This document shows, one piece after another, positions 35,801-59,728 of a stretch of 59,728 nt of DNA (position 1 is its first letter; the number at the start of each line of letters is the position of its first letter). The notes under the pieces are model-generated. The model ran no database searches, was not told the origin of the DNA, and was given only the letters and a program-made list of their open reading frames with translations. A program made the translations under genes and the position numbers. The stretch is from positions 1 through 59,728 of the IMG/VR virus record IMGVR_UViG_3300009104_000024; one strand, written 5' to 3'. The stretch is from a virus (taxonomy: Duplodnaviria; Caudoviricetes).

Positions 35801-38800
35801 ATATCTATGGCTAGAGAACAAGGTATTGTTGGTGGGTTAGGCATAACGCCTTCTGCTGTGCCTGAAGAACCTCGTGGTGAGGATAAATTAGATACTTCTG
35901 ACCCTCAATCAATAGCAGATGAATGGGGTGAAGGTGTTTTAATTACTCCAACTGTATCTTTTAATGATGTTAAATCAGATACAGACCCTATAACAGGTGT
36001 TACGTTGCCTTTGGAAGCTAGACAAAGAGGGGGTTTATACAATAAATGGGAATTAACACCAGAAGAATATGAAGCTGATAGAAAACAAATTTTAGATGAA
36101 TTTTATAGACCAACTGGTATTGGTGATGGAATTGAAAATATTAAAAGTATAGAAGTATTAAAGTGGCTTAGTAAAAATGGACCAACAGAAGATTATAGAG
36201 TTATTGCCAATAGACTATTAGTTCAACAAAGAAAATTAAAAAGAATAGTTGGCATTGAGGGATACTTTGCAATATTTAATGATGAACACGGAGGAAAACA
36301 AAGATTTATTGGTAAAGGTACGGATTACCAAAGTTTTCTTGGTGTTTCATATGCACCTTTTTTAAATGATGGTAGTTATAATGTTAAAGATTATAATCCT
36401 TATGGCGATAGCAAATTAGTACAACAAGTATATTTAAAAGATACCTCTTACACATCTTCACCAGGTCATAATGGTGTAAGTTTTGATACTATGTTGCACG
36501 AATTAGTGCATCAAACTACACAAGCTGCTACTAATTTTTATAGAGGTAGTAGAGCAACTGAACAATCTAAAAAACTTGTAAAAGATTTAGAAGAAGTTAG
36601 AAAAGAATTAATAAAAGAAATTGAAAAAAGAACTGACACTAAAGGTTCTATTGTTGAGGGTCAATATGTCAATGAAGATGCTGAAAATAAATTAAAGAGT
36701 GAATTTGGACAAGACGGAGCAGCAAAAATAGTATATGCAGCAAGTAAAATACAAGAAACTTTAGCAGTTGGATTTACTAATAGATATGCTCAAGACTTTA
36801 TGGATAGTATTCCATATAAAGGAACTAAAAAAACTTTATGGGATAAGTTTACTGAATCAATAAGAAAGCTATTAAGTTTACCTGCTAAAACTAATAGTTT
36901 ATTTTCTGAATTTTTAAGGATAAGTGGAAAATTAACAAATTTATCTAACGCACAATTAGAAGAACTAAATAGAGTTGGTGCTGATTATGATTATGGTCCA
37001 CCTGTTGCTAGCCTTGAAATGTCCGACCCTTCTATAGAATCAGAACTTTCTGATTTAAGAAGAGAACTATATGATGCAGAAAGTTTAGAGTCTGCCGATA
37101 GAGGTTATGTAGATGTAGAGGTAGGCAATCGTAATATGAGAAGAGTACAAAATATAAGAAATAAAATTGAAAGACTTGAAGAACAATTAAAACGAGAAGC
37201 AGAATTAAAACAACCAGTCACACCAGAACAGTTGCCTTTATTTAGTAGAACTCAAAAAGATGAGAAAAAAATAAGAACTATAGCTAGAGAAAATAGAAAA
37301 AGATTAAAGGAAGAATACAAAAATGATCCTGATGCTGTAGATGAAATTATTAAAGAATTTGAAGGCGAAGAATTATTTAGTGATGGTAGTGGTTTTATAG
37401 AAGGAATTACTACAAATAGAGGATATATGGATGACATTCCCTTGTCTTTTTCTTCTGAAAGATTATCTAAAAAAGTATTAGAAGATTATGGTTATGAAGA
37501 AATATTTGAAGGAGAAATGTCATCAGAGTTAAGAGATAAAGATAATCAACAAAATTATTATGTAGATTTAGGACAGAATAAATTTAGAGTTTACTTTAAT
37601 CGTTATGGTAATAAAAGAAACCAAGCGACTATTACTAATCCTACTTTAGATGAGTTAATGAATGAATCATGGTTTGAAAAAGAACGTAGGTCTTCTGACA
37701 TTCCTTTATTTAGTAGAGGACCTAGAGATGAATCGTCAGGTCATTTAGCTGATTATGTGCCTGCAGAATATGGTCCACCTGCACATCAACTAGATATAGT
37801 ATATGGCGATGAAAAAACAAAAGATGGTTATTATCCAGTTAGTTATGGTTTTACATATCCTAAAACTTCTCCAGATTATAGAACAAGAGAATTTACAGTT
37901 TATAGCACAGCTAGAACACCACTAGAACAACAAGAAGAGCGTGAGTTTATAAATAAACTTATGGAAATAAGAGGCAATCCAAATGCAGAAATAACTATGT
38001 ATCAAGCTGCACCACAAAGAGATTTAAGAGAAGGAGATTTAATAACTCCATTTTTAAGTGAAGCTGAAGCTCTTGTAGAAGATTCTAAAGTTACACAACA
38101 AGAAATTAGAGAAGCAGATAGAGCTAGAAGAAGGCAAGAACAGATAGATAAAAAAGGTGCTGTAGATTTACAACAAGAAAGATTGTTTAATCAAATGGAA
38201 GGAATATCAGATATTCTTGGTAGACCTGAAGTTACTCCATCAACAATACATACTTTTAAATTAAAAGCAGGAGATGTTCGTTGGGATGGTAATAATGGTT
38301 GGGCAAGATGGGGTTACTTCCCAAGAATAAAAGCTGTAGAAGATTTACCTTTATTTAGTAGAGCTGCCACAGATACTAAGCCTCCATATATGGACTTTAA
38401 TCGTAAACAGATTAGGAATTTTAGTAGTAATAAAGTTGGTTTTTATGATGGAGTAGAAATACCTTTAACTCATGTTGCACGAATGCGAGTTGAAGATTTT
38501 TTAAAACTTACTACAGCCAATCAAGAGGTAATTGATAATATAATAACAGGAGGTCCAACAGTTGCTTTATCTTCAGAGCCTATGGGCTTACTTCCAGCTT
38601 CTATAAGAAATCCTGATGCTATATTTGACTCAGAAATAGCAGATACTGCAATAATTCCTTCATTACCAAATTTAGAAATTAGAGGAAATGGTCAAGTAAT
38701 TAGCCATGAAGGCAGACATAGAGTTGCATTAATAGGACAAGGAGGTGGTAGAACTGTTCCTGTATTTATAAATTTTCCTGAAGGTAATGTAGAACAAAAT

Positions 38801-41800
38801 ATACCTAATCCTAGTGGTCAAACTTTACAAGAACAAGGTGTTACTTTTTTAAGAAATCAGGAATTTAATAACTTTACTGTTCCTATAAATAGGTTAGGAG
38901 AAATTGCACCTTTACATAGAGATAGTGCCCAAACTAAAGATAAATTAGATTATGCAGTAGAGATTGCTAGTCAGCCTGACTTACTTGCACCCTCTGGAAA
39001 TATACCTTTATTTTCTAGGCAATCTAAAACACCTTCAATAAAAGAACTTCCTGGAGAAGTTTCTGAGTATCGTGATAATTACAATATAACAGATACAGAA
39101 TTACTAAATGCTATAGAAGCTACAGAAATGAGCAGAAAATCAGGAACAAGAGAAAATCCTGGTCAGTTAGATACTACTATAGTAGAAATATTTGAAAACA
39201 ATCCCAACCTTTTAGAAGCTAGTAAAAACTTTCTTAGAAAGTTTACTAATAAAAAAGGTAACTTAATTGTATACAGAGCTTTAAATATACCTGCCTCTAT
39301 GCGTATAAAAAACTATGGGCAGTTTCCTCAAGATATTTACGCAAGTGCAACTATAGACCATAGAGAAGCTAAACAAATAGCAAGTAGTGTAGAAATAAGG
39401 TCAAGAGCTAAAGAAGAAGCACAATCAGAAATACTTAGATTTGAAGTGCCAATGGATAGAGTAAAAGCTTATGTTCCATCTTTAATAGTGGCTGGTAGAG
39501 AGCGATTAATAGAGATGAAAGAACAAGAATTTATTGATGCAGGGATAGAAAGTGAAATGGATGAAGACTTTAATCCTGATGAATATAATGACTACACTAG
39601 AGAACAATACATAGAAGAATATGAAAATGATTTAGATGCTTCTATAGATGAAGCTGAAGTTTTAGTTGACTTACGAGGAATCAAACCAACTTATCAGTAC
39701 ACACCTGGTAGTGGTATAACAGGTAGAGAACCATCTATAACTAGAGATATACCTTTATTCTCAAGAGCCAGAAGATTTACAGGTGAAGCTAATACACAAG
39801 AAAAAGTAGCATTACAAAAGTCTACAGAAATAATTGAAGATTTTGTAAAGAAAACTCCTAGAGGTGAAATACCTTTATACAATACAAATGCCTCTGATGT
39901 TGCTTTAAAAGCTGCGTATGACTATATAAATGACCCTAGTGCTCCTACTATAAATGAACTTCCTAATTACTCTAGAGTTGAAAAAGAAATACCTGAAGAT
40001 TTACAAGGTGTAGTTAATAGAGGTGGGTATGTTGCTCCAAGGAAGCCTTGGTATGAAAGATTAATTAGTGATGTTTCTGACCCTGTAACTAATATTAGAA
40101 AGTTTTTTAAAGATACAAGACAAAACTATATTGATAAGTTAGATAAAGTAGAAAAGAAAATAGCACAAGGAAGTGAAGAGTTTGAAGAAGTAAGACTTTT
40201 AAATAATATAGCCGACACCTCTGCTATAGCTGCATTAAGAATGGCTGATAAAGCTAGAGGTATATTTCAAGGTATGCTTACAAGAGGATTTGCTACAGAT
40301 GTTATTGACGGAGAAGCTGCATTAACAACTACTGAAGAACTAGAAATAGATACAGTATATAACCCATACATTGATGGCGATACAGGTACTGGTGGTTTAT
40401 TACAAATTACTGCTCCTTTATTTTCTGACCCATTAGTAGATTTAGAAGGAATATTTGGAACATATGCCAAATTAAAAAGAGTTCAAGGATTTCAAAAACA
40501 AAATAGACAAGTTGAATCCCCTTTTACACAACAAGATTTAGAATTTATAAATAATATTGAAGCTAACTATCAAGTTGTTGTTGAGGTATATAACAACTAT
40601 CAAAAATGGAACAATAAATTAGTAGACTTTGCACAAGCTAAAGGCTTATTAAATGAAGCACAAGCTACAAAATGGAGAGAAGAATCAACTTACTATCCTT
40701 TTTATAGAGATATGGTTGAAGAAGAGGGTATAACTGCACCAAGAATAGGTGGTGGTTCTTTACCTAATAACCCATTAAATTTAAAACTTAAAGGTTCTGA
40801 AGCAGAAATAAATGTTTCTCCATTAGAAGCTATAGCAAGAAACTCTTTGTCTATTCTTACTGCTTCCATGAAAAATGACGGAGCAACAAAGTTAATAGAA
40901 AGTTTAGCAATTATGGGTGAAGCAGAATACATCACCCCACAACAATTAAAAAATAAACAAGGTGCAAAAACTATATTTGTTTTTGAAAATGGATTTAAAA
41001 AACACTACAACATAGAAGACCCTGATTTATTCCATAGTATCAGAGCATTAGGTGGAGCAGAAGTTGGATTTATAACTAAACTTTTAGCTATGCCAGCTAC
41101 GTTATTAAGAGATACAGTAACTCGTGACCCTGGATTTATAGCAGTAAACTTACTTAGAGATACGCTATCTGCAACTGTAACATCAGGTGTTAATTTATCA
41201 TCACCTTTTACAGGTGGTGATGGATTTGTGCCAATGATAGATACCATTAAAAATATGTTTGGCGACATGACAGACTTAGAAAAGTTTGGTGTTATTGGTG
41301 GATATGATTTCGCTAATGACGAAGGTGATGTTGTTGACTATATGGCACGAATAAGAAGACAACAAGGTCTTACGGCTAACAATGGTATGTCAGCAGAAAA
41401 AGCTTTCTTTTATGTTTGGGATGGTCTTGGTGGACTAACAACAAAATCTGATGGAGCTACTCGTAAAGGTGTGTTTGATGCAGTTTATAAACGCATGAAA
41501 AACACTATTGATGAAAGAACAGGTGAAGTTTACACAGATGCAGCAGCACAATCAGAAGCAGCTTTTCAATCCTTAGAGGTTATAAACTTTGGTCGTAGAG
41601 GACTATCACCAATGTTTAGAGTTATTACGTCTGCAATACCTTTTTTAAACGCTAGAATACAAGGTCTTGACGTTATATACAGGTCATTTAGAGGAACGTA
41701 TTCAGCACAAGATAAACTACAAGAAGGTGAAACTTTAGATGAATTAAAGAACAGAATAATGCGAAGAACTGCATTGAGAGGTGGAACTATTATGGCTTCT

Positions 41801-42781
41801 ACCTTAATTTACTATCTATTAGTTAGTGATACAGAAGAATACAAGGAAGCCAAGAGAGAACTAAGAGATGACAATTGGTTGATACCAACTCCATTTGATT
41901 ACACATTAAAAGTTCCTATTCCTTTTGAGATTGGAATGATGTTTAAGGCACTACCTGAGAGGTTCATAGACCTCGTTCTAGGAGAGAAAGTGTTAGGACT
42001 AAAGGAATCAGTAGAGAAAGACCCTATCGAGTCTATAAGGAGGCAATTAGGAACTTCTGCAAACATACCTTTCTTATCAGGTGACATCAGCATACAAGCA
42101 TTAAAGCCTATTTTTGAAGCTACAATTAATAGAAATTCTTTTACAGGTCAAGAAATTGTTCCTTACTATAAGCTGAAGAGAGAGCCAGGTTATCAAGCAT
42201 CTCCACAAACTAATGAACTAGCTAGAGTTATCGGTGAAGCCTTAAATATTTCACCAACTAAAATTGAGCACGTTATCAATGGATATACAGGAACACTCGG
42301 AGGTTATGTGTTGGATATTGTGGATTCACTAACTAGAACTGCAACAGGTTCTCCATACATACCAAATAATATTTTTAGTAACCCAACTAACTTTGCCCAA
42401 TACCCATTAATTAAAAGACTGGTCGTGGATAATAAAAAAATGGGAGGGTTGCAACAACAGTTCTATGAACTTAGAGGTGAGGTAGATAGAGCCGTTACGA
42501 CTATGAATAGTCTTAAACAAGAAAAAAGGTTTGATGAACTCAGAGCTTATAAGTCTGATGTAAAAGGCTTAATGAATGTCAAAGGCAGAGTAAGAGCAAT
42601 GGAAAGATACTTGGACAATTGGAGGAAGAGAAGAGATAGATTGATGCGTAGGACTGATATATCGGTTATGGTTAAAGCAGAAATGATTCAAGACTTAGAA
42701 GCAGAAAGAGATAAGCGTTTAGCGTTTATACCTGAACTAAGGAAGAAAGCTAACGTGCCTATCCTCCAGGGAGGACTGTAA
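32831..42781 (+). CDS. Large polyvalent protein (ejected): two zincin motifs, ART-like and ParB-like modules, LPD38-like C-terminus
   Basis: HEMIH (35360) and HELVH (36497); HEGRHR; VYRAL..SAT..EAEV; repeated PLFSR linkers; domain names inferred by eye. Confidence 0.75.
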   Translation: MQKVNLPDGRTLKIPNDLSAEKRDELANAVKAEYNIDINEGSLGEWLIDKPKSVVRGLSQMIPTGVKGIAGLTLGSDSDIVKGISDYQRYIATESPLASDPKYRDTFGTKLSEGAGSLIGFGGLSYAGRRLAAKGVLSDKAGRFGVPGSLAVPMGMGEQVDRLEQSRALGEESPGFLAEKTAILAGGVIGLSELAPLERLFRGIPKNALKNPTVQQLLNTRLRSAIATGTAEAIQEAGAGVLQNLTAAGLYSDEIPIFDSALEEFTIGGILGASADLLVNSLANRRSISSQQLRDAETKARDNRTSLQSQDKFARAQEQGMVEEYQEPIIKEKPEIDVPAIVDVAPPDLGVIENPDGQFSVVDYNDLENPILSSHATEVDALLEKNNQQTNYERKVLQVQVDNDTYMMGMPDSDSAKTLGRTVLDPNITQINLSTLIGYDSSISEDLKKELNKEKSATYPAQPYRQMLENKRKNLEKTAKYLESKGLDLKSSFSMPEAKKVLKPKDYNLMLESFANHAFTASEKAGEPSIREDKLDVTIKNIKAIAESKNIELDFKDPAVRYAAKQWTGFEDIPKTRNRGAKELFLARIHSLPAFNSKTKFPDFRPRAYTGVDMANFVASAQDIQFTDADLLVAGPESIRNKPENVKQFLNDLIESGRAKKIKNTNKYELTDDFEYTVARRQEGFNETPDEFRARLERDRSLGKNKLSDEAIDSLVASEEVRQEKVLPPKEIEKKLIDFNETIEEGRTNKFAKELRKKLNKVGLRDTGIVVSNDILSTTTLAETETGQIIFDPRKTRETATEGAVEGEYDRDTDIIFLSLNSVNPDGTATDEQILQRLDKILDHEMIHAFRKKDLITEKEYQYLRNEVKRKKVPTEYDASSKNETFYTRSQRINSGMVRQATSEGRAKEEIEEFLVEEAIAEMYRAREFKPVTPKSKGILNRIVEFFKSMGQAMRVSGYRDSSEIFADIERGKVGARERGQIRTLQELDKISMAREQGIVGGLGITPSAVPEEPRGEDKLDTSDPQSIADEWGEGVLITPTVSFNDVKSDTDPITGVTLPLEARQRGGLYNKWELTPEEYEADRKQILDEFYRPTGIGDGIENIKSIEVLKWLSKNGPTEDYRVIANRLLVQQRKLKRIVGIEGYFAIFNDEHGGKQRFIGKGTDYQSFLGVSYAPFLNDGSYNVKDYNPYGDSKLVQQVYLKDTSYTSSPGHNGVSFDTMLHELVHQTTQAATNFYRGSRATEQSKKLVKDLEEVRKELIKEIEKRTDTKGSIVEGQYVNEDAENKLKSEFGQDGAAKIVYAASKIQETLAVGFTNRYAQDFMDSIPYKGTKKTLWDKFTESIRKLLSLPAKTNSLFSEFLRISGKLTNLSNAQLEELNRVGADYDYGPPVASLEMSDPSIESELSDLRRELYDAESLESADRGYVDVEVGNRNMRRVQNIRNKIERLEEQLKREAELKQPVTPEQLPLFSRTQKDEKKIRTIARENRKRLKEEYKNDPDAVDEIIKEFEGEELFSDGSGFIEGITTNRGYMDDIPLSFSSERLSKKVLEDYGYEEIFEGEMSSELRDKDNQQNYYVDLGQNKFRVYFNRYGNKRNQATITNPTLDELMNESWFEKERRSSDIPLFSRGPRDESSGHLADYVPAEYGPPAHQLDIVYGDEKTKDGYYPVSYGFTYPKTSPDYRTREFTVYSTARTPLEQQEEREFINKLMEIRGNPNAEITMYQAAPQRDLREGDLITPFLSEAEALVEDSKVTQQEIREADRARRRQEQIDKKGAVDLQQERLFNQMEGISDILGRPEVTPSTIHTFKLKAGDVRWDGNNGWARWGYFPRIKAVEDLPLFSRAATDTKPPYMDFNRKQIRNFSSNKVGFYDGVEIPLTHVARMRVEDFLKLTTANQEVIDNIITGGPTVALSSEPMGLLPASIRNPDAIFDSEIADTAIIPSLPNLEIRGNGQVISHEGRHRVALIGQGGGRTVPVFINFPEGNVEQNIPNPSGQTLQEQGVTFLRNQEFNNFTVPINRLGEIAPLHRDSAQTKDKLDYAVEIASQPDLLAPSGNIPLFSRQSKTPSIKELPGEVSEYRDNYNITDTELLNAIEATEMSRKSGTRENPGQLDTTIVEIFENNPNLLEASKNFLRKFTNKKGNLIVYRALNIPASMRIKNYGQFPQDIYASATIDHREAKQIASSVEIRSRAKEEAQSEILRFEVPMDRVKAYVPSLIVAGRERLIEMKEQEFIDAGIESEMDEDFNPDEYNDYTREQYIEEYENDLDASIDEAEVLVDLRGIKPTYQYTPGSGITGREPSITRDIPLFSRARRFTGEANTQEKVALQKSTEIIEDFVKKTPRGEIPLYNTNASDVALKAAYDYINDPSAPTINELPNYSRVEKEIPEDLQGVVNRGGYVAPRKPWYERLISDVSDPVTNIRKFFKDTRQNYIDKLDKVEKKIAQGSEEFEEVRLLNNIADTSAIAALRMADKARGIFQGMLTRGFATDVIDGEAALTTTEELEIDTVYNPYIDGDTGTGGLLQITAPLFSDPLVDLEGIFGTYAKLKRVQGFQKQNRQVESPFTQQDLEFINNIEANYQVVVEVYNNYQKWNNKLVDFAQAKGLLNEAQATKWREESTYYPFYRDMVEEEGITAPRIGGGSLPNNPLNLKLKGSEAEINVSPLEAIARNSLSILTASMKNDGATKLIESLAIMGEAEYITPQQLKNKQGAKTIFVFENGFKKHYNIEDPDLFHSIRALGGAEVGFITKLLAMPATLLRDTVTRDPGFIAVNLLRDTLSATVTSGVNLSSPFTGGDGFVPMIDTIKNMFGDMTDLEKFGVIGGYDFANDEGDVVDYMARIRRQQGLTANNGMSAEKAFFYVWDGLGGLTTKSDGATRKGVFDAVYKRMKNTIDERTGEVYTDAAAQSEAAFQSLEVINFGRRGLSPMFRVITSAIPFLNARIQGLDVIYRSFRGTYSAQDKLQEGETLDELKNRIMRRTALRGGTIMASTLIYYLLVSDTEEYKEAKRELRDDNWLIPTPFDYTLKVPIPFEIGMMFKALPERFIDLVLGEKVLGLKESVEKDPIESIRRQLGTSANIPFLSGDISIQALKPIFEATINRNSFTGQEIVPYYKLKREPGYQASPQTNELARVIGEALNISPTKIEHVINGYTGTLGGYVLDIVDSLTRTATGSPYIPNNIFSNPTNFAQYPLIKRLVVDNKKMGGLQQQFYELRGEVDRAVTTMNSLKQEKRFDELRAYKSDVKGLMNVKGRVRAMERYLDNWRKRRDRLMRRTDISVMVKAEMIQDLEAERDKRLAFIPELRKKANVPILQGGL

Positions 42782-43729: not shown

Positions 43730-43789
43730 CTCAGCTCCTGCTGGAAAAAAATATTCCTAGTCGCCAGAAAAAACAGCAAGTTTCTTGCA

Positions 43790-44860: not shown

Positions 44861-45192
44861 GCACCATATCTAGCTTGTTCTTTCCTAGCTGATACTTGTT
44901 TAGTTCTCCACTCCTCAAAACCTACCTCTAATCCTTTCAGATTCACCTTTAGAGCAGATAAAGTTCCTTTAGCCACACCTACCCTCAATCTAGCTTGATA
45001 TAACTCCTCAGAGGCTTCTGCGTAGGTTTCCTGTGCTGATGTTGTTTTGATGCCCTCACCTAAAGCCTTTAGCTTTAACTGTGCTTGTAGTTTCTTTACT
45101 TCTGCTTCGCACTTGTAAACCTCATACTCAGTCTTTTCCATTGTCGGAGCAAGACTCCTGATTTGGTGCATCCAAGTTTCTTGTTGTTCCAT
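44857..45192 (-). CDS. Coiled-coil hypothetical protein
   Basis: GGGAG RBS, coupled ORF. Confidence 0.7.
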   Translation of the reverse strand: MEQQETWMHQIRSLAPTMEKTEYEVYKCEAEVKKLQAQLKLKALGEGIKTTSAQETYAEASEELYQARLRVGVAKGTLSALKVNLKGLEVGFEEWRTKQVSARKEQARYGA

Positions 45193-45197
45193 AATTT

Positions 45198-45344
45198 CTA
45201 CTCCCTTAATTTCTCACGACTAGGAATATTTTTCTCAGGATACCTTTTCCTCCTGGGATATTTTTTTTTCCTTTGGAAAATTCGGTCAAAGTTTTCTTCA
45301 AACTTATCCCTATCTTTTGTTCTATCTTTACTTCCTTTGCTCAA
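45198..45344 (-). CDS. Small basic protein (48 aa, TTG start, not in ORF track)
   Basis: AGGTG RBS; MSKGSKDRTKDRDKFEENFDRIF...; fills the gap exactly. Confidence 0.6.
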   Translation of the reverse strand: MSKGSKDRTKDRDKFEENFDRIFQRKKKYPRRKRYPEKNIPSREKLRE

Positions 45345-48892: not shown

Positions 48893-50683
48893 ATGGAGAA
48901 AAGTATGCTAAGTCAAGAGCAACAGGAAAAAAATGATATAAGGAATCATATCAATCACAATCCTAAAACTAACAATCAAGCACACGGACAATACAAAATA
49001 ACTTGTCCTAATTGTCAGAGAGAAAGAACAAAGAACAAAGGTGACACACCTTTATCAGTTAATATAAATTCAGAGACTATTGTTTATCATTGTCATCATT
49101 GTGGCATTCAAGGAGCAATGTCTAAATCCCAGGGAGCAACAATGAAAGTAGTTAAAACAGAATCAAAACCAGTAAAAGAAATATCAGTTCCTCCAATAGA
49201 TAAGAAAGGAAAGGCTTCTCAATGGCTGAAAGATAGAGGAATTAGTGTAGAAGTAGCTGAAATGTCAGGTTGCACTCTAACAGAGAAAAATAAAAAACCA
49301 GTCATAGGATTTACATTTGAAAAAGATAGCAAAGCGATAGCAGTTAAGTGGAGAACTTGTAACGGAGAAAAAAGTTATTGGTGGGATAATTCCGCTTCTC
49401 GTCTATGGGGTCGTCAAGTTTACAATGACAGTTTACCTACAGTTGAATCAACAATAGTGATTACAGAAGGCGAATTAGATATGCTTGCAATCAAGGAAGC
49501 GTTTAAAGACCATGCCAACATAGATGTATATAGCGTTCCCAATGGAGCACCAAACAAGATAACAGAGAACAAGATAGACCCTTCTGAAGAAGGAAGATTT
49601 AAGTATATATGGGAAGATAGACACCTTTTTGAAGGAGTAGATAGGGTAGTTTTAGCTACAGATGACGATAAGAACGGAGAGATATTGGCTTCAGAGTTGT
49701 CCAGGAGACTCAATAAAGCTAGATGTTATATTGTTGATTATAAAGGGCATAAGGATGCGAATGAGTTATTAGTTGAGTCAGATGCAGAAACAGTCAGACA
49801 TCAGGTTTTAAATGCAGAGCCTGTTCCTCTTCACGGATTAAACAACATAGACTTTTATGCAGATGAATTTCAAAGTTTGTATGACCAAGGACACCCCAAA
49901 GGCATATCAACAGGGTTTGATTCAGTTGATAAGCTATTTTCTTTGCAAACAGGCTACTTAACTGTAGTTACAGGCTATCCTGGTGACGGAAAGAGTATAT
50001 TTTTAGACAATATTATTATAAATGCCTGTAAAAATTATGGTTGGAAGGCTACCTATTGCAGTTTTGAAAAACCTCCTACGCTTCATGCCGTTCAATTGGC
50101 TCAAATCATAACTTCTAAGCCATTTTTTTCTGGACTGAACCAAAGAATGACACAGGAAGAGAAAGACTATGCACAGAAATTTATAAACGACCATATACTT
50201 TTTCAAGACTATCAAGACGGAGGTATGCCTACGATAGAATCTATCTTAGAAAAGAATGCACAGAGTATTATGAGGACAGGTAGTAGAATACTTGTCATAG
50301 ACCCCTTTAACTTTGTTCAAACAAACGATAAGTATGCTTTAGAAACAGATATGGTTAGTGATATGCTTACGAAAGTTCAGCTTCATTGTAAGCAATATGA
50401 TTGTCTTTGTTTCTTTGTCGCACACCCCACGAAACCACAGATGCGTGACGGAAAAAAGAATATTGTCACAGGAGTTGATGTTGCAAAGTCTATGGCATTC
50501 TTCTCTAAATGTGACACAGGGTTGACAGTTTACAGAGGAGAAGGCACAGTAGATATACATTGTTGGAAAGCAAGGTGGCAATGGCAATCTTCTTTAGGAG
50601 TTGCTAGCTTAACTTTTAACCCTGTTAATAACAGATATGCAGAAGCACAACAAATCAAAGACGACTACGATTGGGAGTTCTGA
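48893..50683 (+). CDS. Primase-helicase (T7 gp4/Twinkle-like)
   Basis: CPNC..CHHC zinc finger, TOPRIM ITEGELD and DDDKNG, Walker A GYPGDGKS, LVIDP, VAHP. Confidence 0.92.
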   Translation: MEKSMLSQEQQEKNDIRNHINHNPKTNNQAHGQYKITCPNCQRERTKNKGDTPLSVNINSETIVYHCHHCGIQGAMSKSQGATMKVVKTESKPVKEISVPPIDKKGKASQWLKDRGISVEVAEMSGCTLTEKNKKPVIGFTFEKDSKAIAVKWRTCNGEKSYWWDNSASRLWGRQVYNDSLPTVESTIVITEGELDMLAIKEAFKDHANIDVYSVPNGAPNKITENKIDPSEEGRFKYIWEDRHLFEGVDRVVLATDDDKNGEILASELSRRLNKARCYIVDYKGHKDANELLVESDAETVRHQVLNAEPVPLHGLNNIDFYADEFQSLYDQGHPKGISTGFDSVDKLFSLQTGYLTVVTGYPGDGKSIFLDNIIINACKNYGWKATYCSFEKPPTLHAVQLAQIITSKPFFSGLNQRMTQEEKDYAQKFINDHILFQDYQDGGMPTIESILEKNAQSIMRTGSRILVIDPFNFVQTNDKYALETDMVSDMLTKVQLHCKQYDCLCFFVAHPTKPQMRDGKKNIVTGVDVAKSMAFFSKCDTGLTVYRGEGTVDIHCWKARWQWQSSLGVASLTFNPVNNRYAEAQQIKDDYDWEF

Positions 50684-51185
50684 TACACCAATTCATGTTA
50701 ATGATGTTGGCAGTCCACATCTGCACAAACATCACGAAGTAGTAATAAGAGTATTCAATAATACTAGAGTTGGCAGAGCAGTTGTTCTTGACCAACATTT
50801 AATAGATGTTTTGTTTCATAAAGATTTATTAGATACTAGACAACACAATGTCTGCGATAAGTATTTAGGAATAATTTCTAAATCAGGATGTTTTGCCCAA
50901 TCAAGTTCTGCCGTCAGCGAAAAAATATTTACGACTGGTAGCAGGAAAACAGGCACTATACCCCAAGCCTGTATTCTTCTTGGTGTGCAAAAGAACATAA
51001 AAAATATATGTGGAAATAAAAAAGAAGGTATTTTTTGGAAGTTGATGACTGAAAATCCAAATAGAATCAATCACTTAGAGTTAAGTGTAATTAAAGAATG
51101 TGCTGATGCACTTCTAACTTATTGGTATATCAGTCCTGAAAGTCCAGTTTCTTTGTTTCAGCAATCCCTGTTAAACCCTTCGTAA
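50637..51185 (+). CDS. Hypothetical protein
   Basis: 182-aa ORF overlapping helicase end. Confidence 0.6.
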   Translation: MQKHNKSKTTTIGSSDTPIHVNDVGSPHLHKHHEVVIRVFNNTRVGRAVVLDQHLIDVLFHKDLLDTRQHNVCDKYLGIISKSGCFAQSSSAVSEKIFTTGSRKTGTIPQACILLGVQKNIKNICGNKKEGIFWKLMTENPNRINHLELSVIKECADALLTYWYISPESPVSLFQQSLLNPS

Positions 51186-51453
51186 TAGGAGTAGTTTCAC
51201 TTGTAATACTGCCTGAATAAATCTCCTTACCTATCTGTTCAGACATATCTTCTTCTAATCCTACTGCTTCTTTTGACTCTTTCATAAGCCTGTTCACTTC
51301 AGAAATTTGTTGAAGCGACAAGCCTTTCTCTTCAGCCAGGGTATGTATCATATGAATAATCTGCTTGTTTAAAGAACGACTTTCTTTTTTTGCCAGTTCG
51401 TGTGCAAGGTCGTATGTTTCTTGCGAACATCTAATGAATAGACTTTTGCTCAT
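51130..51453 (-). CDS. Arc-like ribbon-helix-helix regulator
   Basis: LFIRCSQETYDLAHELAKKESRSLNKQI. Confidence 0.8.
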   Translation of the reverse strand: MSKSLFIRCSQETYDLAHELAKKESRSLNKQIIHMIHTLAEEKGLSLQQISEVNRLMKESKEAVGLEEDMSEQIGKEIYSGSITSETTPITKGLTGIAETKKLDFQD

Positions 51454-51766
51454 CTTTTATATCCTCGTTTAATTCATCTTCGTAAACTATCACAGGTGAT
51501 TCTTGCACCTCGGCAATAGCTACACTCTCTCGACCTACTTGATAGAACCTATCTTCTTCTAATTGACGTATGGCAGATTCTAATAGCCACTCGTTTGAGG
51601 TTATCAAAGGGTCATCTAATAATGAAATAGCAAAACTTAAAGCATCCATTTCGGTATCAAAAACCCAAACTAAATGAACCCACTTAGCACTACTCTCTTG
51701 TGAGAAAACATTCTTAGGGTCTGGAATATCTAATTGGTATGTGTGTCTTACTACTGCAAACATCAT
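51431..51766 (-). CDS. Hypothetical protein
   Basis: ORF with TATAAT just upstream of the start codons. Confidence 0.65.
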   Translation of the reverse strand: MMFAVVRHTYQLDIPDPKNVFSQESSAKWVHLVWVFDTEMDALSFAISLLDDPLITSNEWLLESAIRQLEEDRFYQVGRESVAIAEVQESPVIVYEDELNEDIKDEQKSIH

Positions 51767-51890
51767 TACATTATAGGCAAAATGCTATCAAATTGAAAGC
51801 CACATGAAAAATTCTCAGTAGCTCACATCCATACGGAAAAAAAATATTTATGCGACTGGTATTTTGAGCTACGCCAGTAAACTGCTTCTA

Positions 51891-51906
51891 CGTTTCATGT
51901 GAAACA
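51891..51906. promoter_or_regulatory. parS-like palindrome
   Basis: CGTTTCATGTGAAACA, 14/16 to TGTTTCACGTGAAACA. Confidence 0.7.
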
Positions 51907-51949
51907 TAGACTATCTTAAACGACTATCTTATACGATAAAAAAATGGAT

Positions 51950-51988
51950 AAAAAAAAGGGATGAGTTCTAGGAAAACCCACCCCTTTT
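51950..51988 (-). terminator. Intrinsic terminator
   Basis: AAAAGGGGUGGGUU/AACUCAUCCCUUUU stem with G-U pairs only on minus strand, then U tract. Confidence 0.75.
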
Positions 51989-52042
51989 AACATCTACTAA
52001 CTAGACATGGAGGTTATCTTGTTCTAAGTCTTAACAAGATAT
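51950..52042 (-). ncRNA. Candidate ~90-nt sRNA with anti-Shine-Dalgarno seed
   Basis: Promoter TTGCAT-17-TACAGT (52075-52047), 5' hairpin, AACCUCCAUG, terminator 51988-51950; no ORF. Confidence 0.6.
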
Positions 52043-52078
52043 AAATACTGTAATACTTTCGATTGCATAATGCAAGTG

Positions 52079-52110
52079 TTATCCACAAGTTATTCACACA
52101 GTTATCCACA
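52079..52110 (+). promoter_or_regulatory. Three head-to-tail DnaA boxes
   Basis: TTATCCACA 52079, TTATTCACA 52090, TTATCCACA 52102. Confidence 0.85.
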
Positions 52111-52160
52111 GGTTTTCCAGACTCATCCATAAAAATAAATATTCCTAGTTTTTTGCACGC

Positions 52161-52208
52161 CCACTATATCTTGTGTTGATTAGTTGAGAACACCACTAGA
52201 TATAGACG
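52161..52208. promoter_or_regulatory. Tandem NrdR boxes
   Basis: CCACTATATCTTGTGT (52161) and CCACTAGATATAGACG (52193) fit acaCwAtATaTwGtgt; 32-bp spacing. Confidence 0.75.
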
Positions 52209-52338
52209 GAGGACTTCCTGCGACTGGGAAAATATTTCCCTGGGAGCTACAACAGCTCATCAAAACGTAGCAGTAGGTTAGGTTTCAGATTTCCTACAGG
52301 TAATTTTATCTACCTGTAGTATTTGCTTTTTTCAGACC

Positions 52339-52381
52339 AAAAAAAAAGGCAACAACCACTTATTAAAGTAGTTATTGCCTT
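52339..52381 (-). terminator. Intrinsic terminator closing the leftward early operon
   Basis: 16-bp stem fully paired on minus strand plus U tract. Confidence 0.85.
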
Positions 52382-52426
52382 ATTTATTTTAAAGTTAATT
52401 GTTATGAACCCATTGATGAATTTTAT

Positions 52427-52732
52427 TCATATACGTTCCTCCCTTAATTCACACTCTTCTCTAGTACGAATAAAGGCTAGTCTCCTTGCCCTGGTCATTT
52501 CTATAGAATCCTTAGATTCAAACCTCTCAGGATAAAGTTTATCTAACCACCTTTCGACTACGAATATATTTTCGTTATAGAAACTTAGTAAATCAAAGAA
52601 TTCAGCAGACTTACTGCTTGGCTCACCTGATAATTCCTCAATATTAGTGCCTATAATTTTAGTGTAGATATTAGAGTTAATATCTATAAGAGCCTTCAAA
52701 GACTCCTCAAGAATTTCTTTACTCATCATCAT
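52427..52732 (-). CDS. Hypothetical protein
   Basis: AAGGAG RBS before ATG ATG ATG. Confidence 0.65.
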   Translation of the reverse strand: MMMSKEILEESLKALIDINSNIYTKIIGTNIEELSGEPSSKSAEFFDLLSFYNENIFVVERWLDKLYPERFESKDSIEMTRARRLAFIRTREECELREERI

Positions 52733-52973
52733 CACTCCTTGGAAATGCTTGTATGTCGTCAGGTTCAATATCACAACCTGATATACCAAATTCATGACAA
52801 AGTTCGTAATATGGGTCTCGACAAGTTGCAAAAATATCAGCTTGTCTTTCCCAGTCAAAATTTTCTTCTGCTACGTTTAAAGCCTCATTAAGTTCACTTG
52901 CCTCAACAACTTGTGTGAAGATAGCATTATCTTTGTTGGTTTTTATAACCAACCATTCTGTTTTATTACTCAT
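52719..52973 (-). CDS. Hypothetical acidic protein
   Basis: GGAGG RBS. Confidence 0.75.
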   Translation of the reverse strand: MSNKTEWLVIKTNKDNAIFTQVVEASELNEALNVAEENFDWERQADIFATCRDPYYELCHEFGISGCDIEPDDIQAFPRSDDDE

Positions 52974-53004
52974 AATTTTTCCTCCATTTTAAGTAATAGT
53001 TAGT

Positions 53005-53066
53005 AAAACTAATTTCGACCCTTTTGGGTCATCATCAGGGAAAATACACATTTTCCGATTAGTTTT
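53005..53066 (-). ncRNA. Type III hammerhead ribozyme (extra U after A9)
   Basis: AAAACUAAUC^GGAAAA-UGUGUA-UUUUCC-CUGAUGA-U-GACCC-AAAA-GGGUC-GAAA-UUAGUUUU. Confidence 0.88.
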
Positions 53067-53161
53067 TGTAAATTGAACCTCCACACTTCGTTTCTTAGAG
53101 CGAAACTGAAGGCAAGTTGACCTGGGATATCTCCCAAATCAACCTACCCTTAGAATCGTTT

Positions 53162-54412
53162 CTATGCTACGAGACTATTCTTATCCACATAAATAACTTC
53201 ACCAAAAGGTAAATTATTAGAATAAGAACTTTCCTCCGTAACGCACCATATAACAGGAACTTCAGGCTGAACGTCAGCATCAACCAATCCGAATCCGTCT
53301 GTAAAATAAACGAATGCTTTTACATCCTGGACTTCATCCGAATAATCATTGAAGAGATTAAAAGGAGGATTAAATTCTGTTCCTCCTCCTCCTCTAGCTT
53401 CAAGTTTTACCTCTTCGCCCTGGTCAAGTTCATACACATCCCACCATTCACCATTAGAATTTTTTCTTACGACTGTATCGCAATAACAAACTCTAATTTT
53501 TTCTAAACCACACGATTCAGCCATTGAAATAATTTCAGTAGTGAATATGTTTAGTTCGTCTTGGTCAATTGAACAAGATGTATCTATGGCTATAGCTAAC
53601 TCACCTCCCTGGGAAGATTTAACTTTACTAGGTAAATATAAATTTCTCCAGGTATGACGTTTATTAGGTCTCGCCCACGTTCTATCGTCAGCCATAGAAC
53701 TTGAAAGAAAATCGCTTAACAGTTCATGCCAGTTAAAATTGATTTCCTGTAATTCTTGCATTCTGCGACCTATCGCAGAGCCTGAATCACTTCCTATAGA
53801 TTTCTCCAGTTTGTCAGCTTTAGATACTGCATTCCTGATTTCAGTTTGAAGATCAGACAATTCTGAATCACCTAAAGGTTTTCCTTCTTCGTCTTGAGCC
53901 TGTATGACTTCACCTACTGGCACAGGAAGTTCATCCCATTCAGTAGAGGAAACGTCTATCCCCTCACCTTCATGTCCTGTAATATCATCTACAGTATCTT
54001 GTAAAGAATCATCATCTTCTGCCAAAATTTGATACACCTTTTCAGCAGTCATACCTCTATATTTATTATCAAGTAAACCACCTTCAGGTAATTTCATTCC
54101 TAAATCCCACCTAAGATAAGCATTAATTATATAGTCAGTTGCGTAATTCCATAGAACGTGATGCCTACTACTTCCTTTTCGCAAGGGATGTTCCCATATG
54201 ACGTGGCTAGCTTCGTGAACTAAGACTGCTTGTAATTCCTTAACAGAAATACTTTTGACAAAATCTTTATTCCAAAAAATTCTTTGTCCGTCAGTAGCTA
54301 ACGTATCAAAAGAAGCATCTTCAACCAGTTCTAAGTTGAGCAACATTGAAGCCATACCAATATTACCCTTCATTAGTTTTGCTCTAGCTTTTATAAGTTT
54401 TTGTTCAGTCAT
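53162..54412 (-). CDS. VWA domain protein with N-terminal metallopeptidase (DUF2201-like)
   Basis: ATDG, HEASH, WNYATD; MIDAS-like DTSCS, GGGGT, YFTDG; GGAGG RBS before ATG 54412. Confidence 0.88.
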   Translation of the reverse strand: MTEQKLIKARAKLMKGNIGMASMLLNLELVEDASFDTLATDGQRIFWNKDFVKSISVKELQAVLVHEASHVIWEHPLRKGSSRHHVLWNYATDYIINAYLRWDLGMKLPEGGLLDNKYRGMTAEKVYQILAEDDDSLQDTVDDITGHEGEGIDVSSTEWDELPVPVGEVIQAQDEEGKPLGDSELSDLQTEIRNAVSKADKLEKSIGSDSGSAIGRRMQELQEINFNWHELLSDFLSSSMADDRTWARPNKRHTWRNLYLPSKVKSSQGGELAIAIDTSCSIDQDELNIFTTEIISMAESCGLEKIRVCYCDTVVRKNSNGEWWDVYELDQGEEVKLEARGGGGTEFNPPFNLFNDYSDEVQDVKAFVYFTDGFGLVDADVQPEVPVIWCVTEESSYSNNLPFGEVIYVDKNSLVA

Positions 54413-55358
54413 CTTTACCTCCAAAAGCCTTATTAAAGAAACTTCCTTTAAGGTCTCCTACAGAACTTTCTAAATCATCTGCAACCTTCTTTCGTTTAGC
54501 TTCTCCCAATTCAGTTTCATCTCTAAGAGAATCATAAGAATTGATTGAGGCAAAAACAGAAACAAGACTTTGATGAGCATTAGATATGTCTGCATCATTC
54601 CCTAAAATGTCAGAGTTAATTGAGGGAAGCATATCAATAGACTGTTTTAATTTCTCAAAACTGGTCTTATGAAATGTTTCACCATTCTTTAACTTATCGA
54701 CAATATGATTTACTTGTTCAAGTAAAGCCTCAACAGTAACCTTAAAAACATTTCTTACATTGTTTGCAAGTCTGTTTTCAGTCTCTTGTTGAATGCTAGC
54801 TTTCATTTTGTCAGAGACATTTAAACGAATATCAGAAGATTTAGTTATGTCCTGAATTAGTTCTTTCTTAAAATCAAAAACAAATTTGCTTCTAAGTTTT
54901 TCAACGTCAGGATAATCTTCTTCATTAAATGCAGAGCCTAATTTTCTTTCAGCTACAGAAACAAAAGAATCATAATTTTCAAGAAAACTTTCTGCTTCCT
55001 CAAAAAAATCATCTTTAGCTTCTTGCATTTTCTCGTCTAGCAAATCTAATTGTGTACTTGGACACAATCTCCACCCACTAGTGCTAGTTGAATCAGAATC
55101 CGATTCACTATCGCTCCAGGGAACAGTTAAAGCATAATAGTATTCTCTACGAATCCTATTCGTTATACGTCTGAATATCTTATTAATATTCTCTCCGTAC
55201 ATATGCTTAGAAACGTGCAATGTTCTTTCATCTGCACCTACGTTACTTTCTAACCCTTCTCGTAAACTTTTATCTACCTTAATACCACTAGGATGTTTAA
55301 CAGTTAAACTAACCAGTAATGCTTGTTTAGATAAAAGGTTTTTATTATTTTTATTCAT
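54405..55358 (-). CDS. Helical hypothetical protein (DUF3150-like)
   Basis: GGAGG RBS; between ATPase and VWA genes; family call inferred. Confidence 0.6.
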   Translation of the reverse strand: MNKNNKNLLSKQALLVSLTVKHPSGIKVDKSLREGLESNVGADERTLHVSKHMYGENINKIFRRITNRIRREYYYALTVPWSDSESDSDSTSTSGWRLCPSTQLDLLDEKMQEAKDDFFEEAESFLENYDSFVSVAERKLGSAFNEEDYPDVEKLRSKFVFDFKKELIQDITKSSDIRLNVSDKMKASIQQETENRLANNVRNVFKVTVEALLEQVNHIVDKLKNGETFHKTSFEKLKQSIDMLPSINSDILGNDADISNAHQSLVSVFASINSYDSLRDETELGEAKRKKVADDLESSVGDLKGSFFNKAFGGKDD

Positions 55359-55385
55359 AAACCCTCCAGTCTATATTATTAATAA

Positions 55386-55448
55386 TCTGTTTCGCATGAC
55401 CCATAAATGAACAGGTCGCTCTTCAGTATGGTTAATTCCATATACAGA
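55386..55448 (-). ncRNA. Type III hammerhead ribozyme (canonical core)
   Basis: UCUGUA^UAUGG-AAUUAA-CCAUA-CUGAAGA-GCGACC...GGUC(AU)GC-GAAA-CAGA. Confidence 0.9.
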
Positions 55449-55475
55449 AAAAAACGGAGGGCATTTCTGCCCTCC
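55448..55475 (-). terminator. Intrinsic terminator abutting hammerhead
   Basis: GGAGGGCA-GAAA-UGCCCUCC-G-U7. Confidence 0.8.
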
Positions 55476-55481
55476 ATAATT

Positions 55482-56570
55482 TTATACCTCTAAGTCTTGA
55501 TGCTTAACTTTGAACTCATTGAAAGTTGTTGTTTCAACAAGTTCAGTTCTTGCATTGATTAGAGAACGAACAAAAAATACTTCGTATTCAGGAGTTGGAA
55601 ATTGCTCTATATATTTCAGAGCATTTTCAAAATAACTTTCAACCAAAGAATCGCTAACTTCTTTAATTACAGTTATCAGCGCAACGACTGTAGCAAAATA
55701 TATTCCGTTCTGTTTTTTCTTATCCTTAGCCTTTTCAGGAGAATCAATTTTCCCCTCACAAATTTTTTGCAAGTCAGGAACATCTTCTTTGAGTTGCAAG
55801 AAAGATGCAAATTCAATTGATGCAGTTTCGCCTACATTAATGTCTGCGAATTTCTGTATAAATGAATTTTCAGGATTAGTCTTTAAAGTGCTAGACAATC
55901 TTGTCCAGGAACGAGGGCAAGGCTGAGGAGCAATGACTTTAGGATCAAAAACATTCAACCAGTTAGGCTGATAATTTAAGAATCCTAAAATGTCAGGATG
56001 AACATCATTCTTGACTGCCCAATTGAACCAGTCGTTAGAATCGTGAACGAACTCAATCATTGCACACCTGGAATAGCAATGAGAAGGAATCTTATTAGAC
56101 CCCGCCCTATCGCTAGCCTTATTGGAAGCACAAACAATTACCCAATTACCTTTTCCATTTTCAGGAGTTGGTAATTCATAATCTCCTATTCTTTTCTCAT
56201 ACATAAGTTGAGATAGAACAGTTTGCATTGAATGGTGAGACTGCCCAAATTCATCCAGGAAAAGCATACCTTCTCCACTAACAGGAAGATTACCTAAAAA
56301 GGCTCTCTTCTGTTTGCCTTCCTCAATATAAGGAATGCCTGATAGGTCATAAGACTCATACAAACTACTTCTAAAATCTATCCAACCATATTCTTTTGCA
56401 GTTGGATTGACTTTATCTGTAACCACTTTTCTTCCTTCAGCCAAGATGTCTCGCACCTCTTCGACTATTGCAGACTTTCCAATACCAGTTCCTCCTAAAA
56501 GGAATGGCGTATTGTTAGCCTTTATTTCGCATTGCATCATATACAACGCTTCACTAGGTTTATATTTCAT
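55482..56570 (-). CDS. MoxR-like AAA+ ATPase
   Basis: GGTGIGKS Walker A, LFLDE Walker B, ASN sensor, PRSW. Confidence 0.9.
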   Translation of the reverse strand: MKYKPSEALYMMQCEIKANNTPFLLGGTGIGKSAIVEEVRDILAEGRKVVTDKVNPTAKEYGWIDFRSSLYESYDLSGIPYIEEGKQKRAFLGNLPVSGEGMLFLDEFGQSHHSMQTVLSQLMYEKRIGDYELPTPENGKGNWVIVCASNKASDRAGSNKIPSHCYSRCAMIEFVHDSNDWFNWAVKNDVHPDILGFLNYQPNWLNVFDPKVIAPQPCPRSWTRLSSTLKTNPENSFIQKFADINVGETASIEFASFLQLKEDVPDLQKICEGKIDSPEKAKDKKKQNGIYFATVVALITVIKEVSDSLVESYFENALKYIEQFPTPEYEVFFVRSLINARTELVETTTFNEFKVKHQDLEV

Positions 56571-56959: not shown

Positions 56960-57014
56960 TAGTTTCTTGAACCCTATAATTAGGATTCTCTTCAGCACGT
57001 TAATTCGTGGACTA
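56960..57014 (-). ncRNA. Type III hammerhead ribozyme (AA insertion before G12)
   Basis: UAGUC^CACG-AAUUAA-CGUG-CUGAAGA-GAAUCCUA-AUUA-UAGGGUUC-AA-GAAA-CUA. Confidence 0.8.
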
Positions 57015-57088
57015 TCTTATTCAACGACTATCTCAAACAATTTTAAAAATAAAAAAAATAATAAAAAAAAATACAAAAAAAAAGAAAC

Positions 57089-58633: not shown

Positions 58634-58906
58634 ACTACTGTCCGATTATCGTTAACGCCTCCCCAACTTAGATTGTGTTGGTTCTTTGGGTACGCATTTT
58701 GTTTTGAAGCTTTACTTCTATCTTCGTGGGTAATTCTTGAGACCCTCATCTTCAGTTAAGCCCTGTCACGACCTGAAGCACTATCTTGTTCTACTCTATA
58801 AAACCTCCATTGGTTTAATTGAATATTTAATAATACAGGAACACACCATAATAGCTAGCATAATGTGAGCATTACATAACCAGGGAAAAAGGAACATAAT
58901 GCAAGC

Positions 58907-59395: not shown

Positions 59396-59400
59396 CCAGG

Positions 59401-59460
59401 CATAAGACTATCTTAATCAATTATAAGACTACCTTAATCAATCATAAGACTACCTTAATC
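59401..59460 (+). repeat. 21-bp tandem repeat x3
   Basis: (C/T)ATAAGACTA(T/C)CTTAATCAAT units at 59401, 59422, 59443. Confidence 0.9.
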
Positions 59461-59728
59461 TAGGACTAAATTAATTCATTCCTGGTTGTTCCCTGGACAA
59501 GAGAAATTAACCAGGCGAATTGACCAGGGAGCTACTCCAGGTATTTGACCAGAGCGAAAGATATTCCAGGCGAATTTATACGGATATGTGCGTAGTTGTA
59601 AGGTATTTAAAATTATATAAGTTCTTTTCTTTTCTTGAACCCTACCTTTTTCCTGAGAAAGACTGCTTGACATTAGACCCCCCACCCCCCTGTGTATAAT
59701 TACGTTACTTGACTGACTATAATACATA

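Follow-up and report, generated by a model that had tools for sequence, protein, structure and literature searches.

Introduction

In enterobacteria, the nrdAB promoter joins a double DnaA box to a tandem NrdR operator (excerpts of PMC2892513 and PMC12176259). Here we describe a locus from an uncultured marine phage lineage in which, as at the nrdAB promoter of Escherichia coli and Salmonella, DnaA and NrdR sites stand at one sigma70-type promoter. The locus is a block at positions 51767-52426, flanked by two minus-strand open reading frames (ORFs), of a complete IMG/VR virus record (IMGVR_UViG_3300009104_000024; 59,728 bp, CheckV completeness estimate 100%), the whole of which is referred to as the window. 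Unlike the nrdAB promoter, the promoter of this block drives a predicted phage small RNA and not ribonucleotide reductase (RNR), its inputs are interchangeable between lineages, and its NrdR pair is located upstream of the DnaA array instead of over or downstream of the core promoter. We think it somewhat likely that the block is the control region of the early/replication arm of the phage, with the DnaA and NrdR sites serving the small-RNA promoter, and that the phage probably reads the replication and DNA-precursor state of its host through it.

Other described systems resemble parts of this locus. The injection-stop (iss) region of T5-like phages is likewise conserved and untranslated, with DnaA boxes precisely ordered as pairs 3 bp apart, and with numerous repeats and palindromes; it differs in having eight boxes placed within inverted repeats in the terminal repeat, and a role in DNA injection has been proposed for it (partial text of bioRxiv 10.1101/866236). 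That partial text describes no NrdR boxes or parS-like site in iss, and no small RNA or promoter register. The parS/ParB systems share with the block a 16-bp palindrome whose half-sites are half-parS heptamers bound by several ParBs, and ParB-family proteins acting as transcriptional repressors, such as KorB, are cited in the same source (excerpt of PMC7022226). Unlike a chromosomal parS, the site described here is single, has a non-CG centre and lies beside a promoter in a phage without par genes, and the binding of ParB to it is putative.

Some trans-acting small RNAs of bacteria and phages, for example those of the RsaE/RoxS type, have C-rich anti-Shine-Dalgarno seeds. The phage RNA resembles them in having its own promoter, a 5' hairpin, a C-rich seed that is left unpaired, and a U-tailed intrinsic terminator, but it has no sequence or Rfam relationship with them, and its promoter is associated with DnaA and NrdR sites. 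A developmental switch tied to ongoing DNA replication, of the kind proposed below, also has a parallel in the replication-coupled late transcription of phages T4 and, as far as the excerpted source goes, Mu; these use a sliding clamp, whereas here host DnaA and NrdR are proposed to be the sensors, with a small RNA as the output. Phages borrow host transcription factors, and the locus described here adds a variant to the phage promoters that are regulated by host factors, one whose output is a small RNA not annotated before. A search of open-access papers and bioRxiv found no report of NrdR operators in a phage lacking ribonucleotide reductase, or of a phage small RNA connected with DnaA or NrdR sites.

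Conservation of the block

For comparison, 34 related loci were fetched from viral contigs by means of the VWA/DUF2201 protein encoded next to the block (53162-54424; 35-97% identity), and further loci were added by an exact 23-nt search. Loci are designated by L numbers, and counts over 23 refer to distinct locus versions. A gap free of protein genes was present upstream of the gene gpX in every locus read, and within it the motif order was constant: NrdR pair, DnaA array, palindrome, gpX. The more complete anatomy of the minus strand was read from an alignment of nine close versions, together with more distant ones. An intrinsic terminator (T1) is followed by palindromes of a motif designated M, the NrdR pair, two to four DnaA boxes (the copy number found across the versions) and the sigma70-type promoter; then come the small RNA with its terminator T2, T-rich DNA, two direct repeats, the parS-like palindrome, the gpX promoter, gpX and gpY.

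An initial annotation, made from the letters of the window alone, had described a gene-free block with a parS-like palindrome, DnaA boxes and NrdR boxes within about 320 bp. All three motif classes are found exactly where it had placed them, and the distance from the palindrome to the second NrdR box is 318 bp. The term "gene-free" is appropriate with regard to protein genes, but not otherwise, since promoters, terminators and a structured small RNA are present. Co-conservation had been suggested as a check, and the sites are indeed found again, with their order unchanged, in relatives having a flanking VWA protein of approximately 50-97% identity. As the order is retained in such diverged relatives, the host DnaA and NrdR sites are very likely functional, as judged from sequence comparison.

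The predicted small RNA and its promoter

The sigma70-type promoter of the small RNA is located on the minus strand at 52047-52075, with the -35 hexamer at 52075->52070, a 17-bp spacer and the -10 hexamer at 52052->52047. When read from the sequence, the -35 element, the 17-bp spacer and a TAnnnT -10 element are present in 23 of the 23 versions (a simple promoter scan did not list the copy in the window). On the basis of this promoter, the RNA fold and T2, a minus-strand small RNA of about 90 nt (51947-52040) is predicted. It consists of stem-loop 1 (SL1, 52038->52018), an unpaired stretch with the motif CCUCC (52017->52009), stem-loop 2 (SL2, 52008->51990) and T2 (51988->51954, plus a U-run). 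The CCUCC motif is anti-Shine-Dalgarno-like; in L017 it lies in a hairpin loop.

This architecture was common to all 12 of the 12 divergent versions that were folded (z scores from -3.2 to -6.0; in each case none of 200 shuffles folded as well). A covariance model built from the window's version was run on 13 sources and gave 13 full-length matches at E<1e-4. These sources had been chosen out of 32 searched; the distant L013, L017 and L018-type versions, which scored weakly or not at all, were left out, and a 29-match alignment containing weak, terminator-only matches was discarded in favour of the 13-match one. In the 13-sequence alignment, which was fitted to the model, 97.3% of the cells pair, compared with 84.6% in shuffles, and none of 500 shuffles reaches this value; slid controls had 41-55% of cells paired. 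Double-sided changes were found in 15 of the 29 pairs, including five of the six in the first hairpin (0 of 500 shuffles). The predicted small RNA thus has a promoter of its own, a conserved structure that covaries in the model-fitted alignment, and an intrinsic terminator, T2, which a terminator scan also detected and which shows compensatory changes between versions. A search of Rfam with the region 51000-53200 (E<=10) revealed nothing near a gathering score; the best match, at 28.6 bits against the 55.8 required, was the T1 hairpin.

T1 itself, the terminator of the upstream operon, was identified by a terminator scan on the minus strand at 52337-52381 (stem 52381->52346, plus a T-run), and its stem is kept in relatives via compensatory changes. 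The same scan detected a terminator-like hairpin on the plus strand at 52294-52319, which among nine aligned sequences could be aligned only in the window, L002, L004 and L029.

In most lineages, a stretch of 8-10 contiguous bases is common to the complement of the CCUCC seed and the ribosome-binding site of a phage gene encoding an AAA-ATPase, a DUF3150 protein or the VWA protein. Most lineages also have, immediately 5' of the GGAGG-type core, the same base in the seed complement as in the AAA-ATPase or DUF3150 ribosome-binding site, and this base changes in step between lineage groups (both comparisons were made by eye). A duplex-energy ranking of start regions placed the DUF3150, VWA and AAA-ATPase genes high, but among spurious ORFs, and therefore did not discriminate. 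The naming of these three genes as targets is speculative and comes from sequence matching.

The DnaA box array

Three head-to-tail DnaA boxes lie on the plus strand at 52079-52087, 52090-52098 and 52102-52110, with spacings of 2 and 3 bp. The first and the last of them are perfect boxes, and the one between them is within the stringent consensus (bioRxiv 10.1101/866236). The window contains three perfect boxes in total (shuffle mean 0.82; three were reached in 5 of 100 shuffles), and the pattern of paired boxes has two overlapping matches in it, whereas any match at all occurred in 0 of 100 shuffles. At regulatory sites of E. coli, DnaA binds cooperatively to boxes 2-3 bp apart, which is its preferred spacing (PMC11317965, as excerpted), and the boxes of the window have this same-orientation 2-3 bp spacing. 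The last box ends 3 bp from the -35 element of the small-RNA promoter. This register is fixed: measured from the first position of the -35 hexamer, 21 of the 23 versions have at least two same-orientation boxes (with at most one mismatch) at -12, -23, -35 and, in some cases, -47.

A blastn search of 51500-52700 against 50,697 phage records gave a sole match, to 45 bp of the DnaA array, in Escherichia phage nasanit. This T7-like coliphage (PV245933.1; L051 540-660) is thus a further phage with a DnaA-box cluster: about 100 bp of it, annotated as tiny hypothetical genes, hold at least five consensus boxes.

An array of this kind might belong to a replication origin, at which DnaA would open an A/T-rich tract and help to load the phage primase-helicase and the host polymerase, with activation by nearby transcription. 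The three consensus boxes do adjoin an A/T-rich stretch, the block is approximately 1 kb from the primase-helicase cassette, and its repeats and palindromes could serve as iterons. Furthermore, the phage encodes a primase-helicase and a recombination module but no DNA polymerase, so that host replication proteins are needed. Other features of the array speak against an origin. Its fixed 3-bp register with the -35 element is typical of a regulatory site, and no DnaA-trio-like repeats were seen on inspection by eye. The GC skew, another of the checks suggested by the initial annotation, tracks gene orientation and shows no origin signal. In addition, the transcript ends at a strong terminator and is therefore not a primer. 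The comparison between lineages presented below adds to these arguments, and on balance we regard an origin as unlikely.

The NrdR box pair

Two tandem NrdR boxes are located at 52161-52176 and 52193-52208, separated by a 16-bp linker, which agrees with the linker of 15-16 bp (alternatively about 24-27 bp) expected of an NrdR operator. Both contain all six of the highly conserved positions, C4, A6, A8, T9, T11 and G13 (PMC13584703, in excerpt). This is the sole pair in the genome with both boxes fully conserved at a linker of 14-17 bp, and at least one such pair appeared in 4 of 300 dinucleotide shuffles. Single NrdR cores are common (20 seen, 17.6 expected), and the signal is thus in the pairing. 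Of the 23 versions, 15 keep the pair, and the linker is 16 bp in all of these (the flank of L043 is too short to judge). In 557,706 scanned bases there were 29 strict pairs, all of them in this control region, with a linker of 16 bp in 28 and 15 bp in one; in both totals, overlapping loci on one contig are counted more than once.

An NrdR operator would be expected at the promoter of a ribonucleotide reductase operon, but the pair is placed upstream of the small-RNA promoter, in a phage without the reductase large subunit. In Streptococcus pneumoniae nrdHEF, the NrdR boxes are wholly upstream of the -35 element (excerpt of PMC12051234). A minus-strand scan match to a promoter overlapping the NrdR boxes of the window was rejected, as it is not kept in relatives.

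Relatives without a pair in the block (L018, L019, L025, L027, L031 and L033) have one in the spacer between the small and large terminase genes (TerS-TerL), with a linker of 27 or 18 bp; an example is L033 2275-2333. Linkers of both lengths belong to the helical-phase classes that have been reported for NrdR (PMC12051234). The TerS-TerL spacer of the window (59396-59728 plus 1-230) contains no canonical NrdR pair.

Canonical NrdR pairs, found in some relatives also in this second spacer, could be taken as decoys. According to this explanation, amplified sites would titrate DnaA, NrdR and ParB, so that host initiation stalls and the host ribonucleotide reductase is derepressed; a phage encoding neither a ribonucleotide reductase nor an ATP-cone protein would gain from the latter. 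A decoy, however, needs no fixed promoter register and predicts many dispersed or tandem copies, while there are only a single NrdR pair and two to four DnaA boxes per genome, and lineages drop one site class or another. We consider a decoy highly improbable, although titration may occur as a side effect.

Exchange of the putative sensor modules between lineages

The arrangement at the small-RNA promoter differs between lineages, which have a DnaA array, an NrdR pair, or both. In L013 and L014 (and also in L015 and L034) the NrdR pair ends 9 bp before the same -35 element, and there is no DnaA array; L013-type and L014-type are the two of the 23 versions that lack the array. In L016, which lies beyond the 23 and was read by eye, the pair ends 11 bp before the corresponding -35 element of a sequence-divergent small-RNA promoter, and in L017 it abuts the gpX promoter instead. 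The loci showing this swap keep the primase-helicase at 61-65% identity, except that the L015 locus gave a match for orf182 only; orf182 (the gene next to the primase-helicase) is kept in all of these lineages, and orf100 in all but L017.

These observations bear directly on the origin hypothesis. If the array were an origin, a DnaA cluster should accompany the same replication machinery wherever it occurs, yet L013, L014, L016 and L034 have no perfect DnaA box while keeping the primase-helicase, and no perfect box is present in the fetched 6-12 kb of L013-L016 and L034. Lineages with the same primase-helicase and orf182 thus lack DnaA boxes at this position and have NrdR boxes there instead. 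The core site of an initiator would not be expected to be replaceable by the operator of a ribonucleotide reductase repressor, whereas a regulatory input could be; the swap therefore favours transcriptional inputs over an origin core.

In the arrangement that we favour, the sigma70-type promoter on the minus strand would drive a terminator-ended RNA of about 90 nt displaying the unpaired CCUCC motif, and host DnaA and NrdR would act on this promoter as transcription factors. The output of small RNA would then track the replication-initiation and deoxyribonucleoside triphosphate (dNTP) state of the host, and the RNA might base-pair with phage mRNAs at strong ribosome-binding sites, for which the upstream AAA-ATPase, DUF3150 and VWA genes are candidates. 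The direct repeats and the palindrome could serve as operators of the leaderless gpX-gpY operon, bound by a phage ribbon-helix-helix protein and/or host ParB. As the availability of DnaA-ATP and the level of dATP would both report on replication, either protein could gate the same promoter. The sites with their conservation and register, the promoter, the RNA structure and the terminators are read from the sequences themselves, whereas the binding partners, the direction of control, the RNA targets and the timing are inferred.

A further possibility, which we put forward only tentatively and consider doubtful as a whole, is that the block is a replication-coupled developmental switch built from host nucleotide-switch proteins. 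In such a switch, DnaA (with ATP), NrdR (with dATP plus ATP) and possibly ParB (with CTP) would keep the small-RNA and gpX-gpY promoters in a single state until dATP and DnaA-ATP were depleted by the synthesis of phage DNA. The host proteins would then dissociate, and early genes would be silenced by the small RNA at their ribosome-binding sites. The modules proposed as sensors, the DnaA array and the NrdR pair, are swapped between lineages, and some lineages have an NrdR pair also in the spacer before the packaging/structural operon.

The initial annotation had interpreted the block as a host-mimicking origin/centromere or as a DNA decoy, either of which would be host reprogramming by binding sites. 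Its recognition of host-protein sites is well founded, but neither interpretation is the best reading in view of the fixed register, the module swap and the losses of the palindrome described below. The block also seems to let host proteins program the phage, and not the reverse.

Several points weigh against the control-region interpretation. The NrdR pair of the window lineage lies about 85-130 bp upstream of the -35 element, which is far for simple occlusion, and reading of the relatives' sequences gave no conserved promoter overlapping the NrdR boxes of the window. An A/T-rich tract is located directly upstream of the DnaA array, in an orientation like that of the unwinding element beside box R1 in E. 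coli oriC, and this keeps an origin role alive. The alignment from which covariation was counted had itself been fitted to the model, and a sequence-only MAFFT alignment analysed with RNAalifold recovered SL2 and the terminator but not SL1, because MAFFT misaligned SL1. The link between the seed and the ribosome-binding sites fails in L028 and L017, and the match may reflect only a shared strong Shine-Dalgarno sequence. As to clues to the host, relatives of the VWA protein occur in bacterial genome contigs but none was confirmed, and an exact search of bacterial genome contigs with a 23-nt seed gave no matches. Finally, no RNA sequencing runs containing the sequence were listed.

If the control-region interpretation is correct, an uncultured marine phage lineage measures the replication and dNTP state of its host through the host's own sensors, by means of modular inputs that evolution has exchanged between lineages. 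This would provide a testable system for how polymerase-less phages time their programme, as well as compact natural parts, namely a structured regulatory RNA and a promoter that takes its input from DnaA or NrdR.

The palindrome, the repeats and the gpX-gpY operon

The parS-like palindrome (51891-51906, 16 bp) consists of 7-bp arms around a variable central dinucleotide. It has two mismatches to the cited parS consensus (14 of 16 positions match) and is the sole site in the window with at most two mismatches (shuffle mean 0.10); one of its halves is a perfect half-parS heptamer as defined in the excerpted PMC7022226. It was found in 18 of the 23 versions and is missing from L017, L037, L039, L044 and L050, the absence from L037 being less certain as only 218 bp of flank were fetched. 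Between versions, the arms change symmetrically between two natural half-parS variants, while the centre is variable: the central CG of parS is replaced in the window and in every version except L015, whose palindrome is an exact Pseudomonas-type parS listed in PMC7022226 (same excerpt). In several lineages the palindrome is placed just upstream of the gpX -35 element.

The consensus match with its perfect half-site, the symmetric changes of the arms, the exact parS of one relative and the lack of an integrase are all compatible with a centromere, on which host ParB would load to partition a plasmid-like genome in a carrier state. However, the site is present in a single copy and is missing from 5 of the 23 versions, its central CG is replaced in all versions but one, and its location just upstream of the gpX -35 element in several lineages is operator-like. 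Moreover, the phage shows no sign of lysogeny and has no ParA or ParB gene (the ParB_N search was negative), and a centromere, like a decoy, explains neither the fixed register nor the lineage-specific losses. We therefore consider a centromere highly improbable and treat the palindrome as operator-like on the basis of its sequence, with host ParB or a phage protein as candidate binders.

Two 9-bp direct repeats are located on the minus strand just upstream of the palindrome (51909-51917 and 51922-51930) and are kept in relatives. The 9-mer occurs again on the minus strand at 57010 and 59406, and a shorter 7-bp core at 57027, 58780 and 218, in each case in an intergenic spacer. The minus-strand repeat is thus present in two copies near 57010-57027, in three tandem 21-bp units after TerS (59400-59470) and as one copy each near 58780 and 218. 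A phage regulator, for instance the ribbon-helix-helix protein gpY, may use it as an operator.

The A/T-centred palindromic motif M occurs in the block at 52220-52249 (copy 1), at about 52133-52154 (inverted) and at 51838-51872, and in every lineage that was read the NrdR and DnaA sites are flanked by M-like palindromes. Further copies were noted at 43740-43765 and 45215-45235, just upstream of a RusA-like gene and of a gene starting at 45192, respectively. M could be a protein site or an RNA hairpin. We know of no host counterpart of either the direct repeats or the M palindromes.

The gpX-gpY promoter lies on the minus strand at 51770-51798 (-35 at 51798->51793, 17-bp spacer, -10 at 51775->51770) and is conserved in all lineages read, although the simple scan lists an overlapping alternative. 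The gene gpX has two tandem ATGs, of which most relatives have only the second; the -10 element ends 3 nt ahead of the first and 6 nt ahead of the second; with the -10 element this near to the ATGs, a leaderless mRNA is predicted. The conserved gene gpX (51431-51766, minus strand) has a homologue downstream in 24 of the 34 related loci. Its predicted structure has a mean predicted local distance difference test score (pLDDT) of 79 and gave no PDB matches at E<=0.001, so that a DNA-binding fold cannot be claimed, and a tblastn search against phages gave no match. The product of gpY (51130-51453, minus strand) is an Arc-like ribbon-helix-helix protein matching the phrog_228 Arc-like repressor (E 1.3e-4).

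The presence of gpY beside the block raises the possibility that the sites, or some of them, only resemble host sites and are in fact operators for proteins of the phage (gpY, gpX or the product of orf182). The recurrence of the direct repeats and of motif M elsewhere in the genome, in other spacers, and the departure of the palindrome centre from parS, are in line with this. On the other hand, the DnaA and NrdR matches include spacing rules specific to the host proteins (2-3 bp between DnaA boxes; NrdR linkers of 16 bp, and of 27 or 18 bp elsewhere), and the phage encodes no DnaA-like or ATP-cone protein. We consider it quite unlikely that phage operators account for the sites, and retain host DnaA and NrdR as the putative ligands at the small-RNA promoter.

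Gene content of the phage

The large terminase is 52-60% identical to those of phages DSL-LC04 and 023Pt_psg01 and of Pelagibacter phages HTVC027P and HTVC023P, and HTVC023P-type pelagiphages have the packaging genes most similar to those of the lineage. Phages of the HTVC023P type carry a DNA polymerase of family A (PMC9599517 and bioRxiv 10.1101/2019.12.14.876532, in excerpt). Pfam family searches of the whole 59,728-bp record, with positive controls, gave no match for DNA_pol_A, DNA_pol_B, ParB_N, Bac_DnaA, ATP-cone, Phage_integrase or Ribonuc_red_lgC. These seven negative searches bear out the initial annotation, in which no parB, dnaA, nrdR, nrdAB, DNA polymerase or integrase gene had been recognized. 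No tRNA or tmRNA was found in the window.

The primase-helicase is encoded at 48893-50683, and its gene end is overlapped by orf182 (50637-51185). The latter is kept in all lineages at 44-92% identity and has no Pfam or PHROG family match; its product could be a replication accessory or origin-binding protein. The recombination module consists of an exonuclease, a Sak-type annealing protein, an SSB-like protein, RusA and a Ref-like nuclease.

Upstream of the block, at 53162-56570, is a conserved trio of genes encoding a MoxR-like AAA ATPase, the DUF3150 protein and the DUF2201 metallopeptidase/VWA protein, and all three have strong GGAGG-type ribosome-binding sites. The ends of the record (1-60 and 59670-59728) lie within the TerS-TerL spacer, where G-runs and a hairpin-like element resemble the spacer of relatives, and the record is probably a permuted circle opened at this point. 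The structural arm includes one ORF of 3,316 amino acids at 32831-42781.

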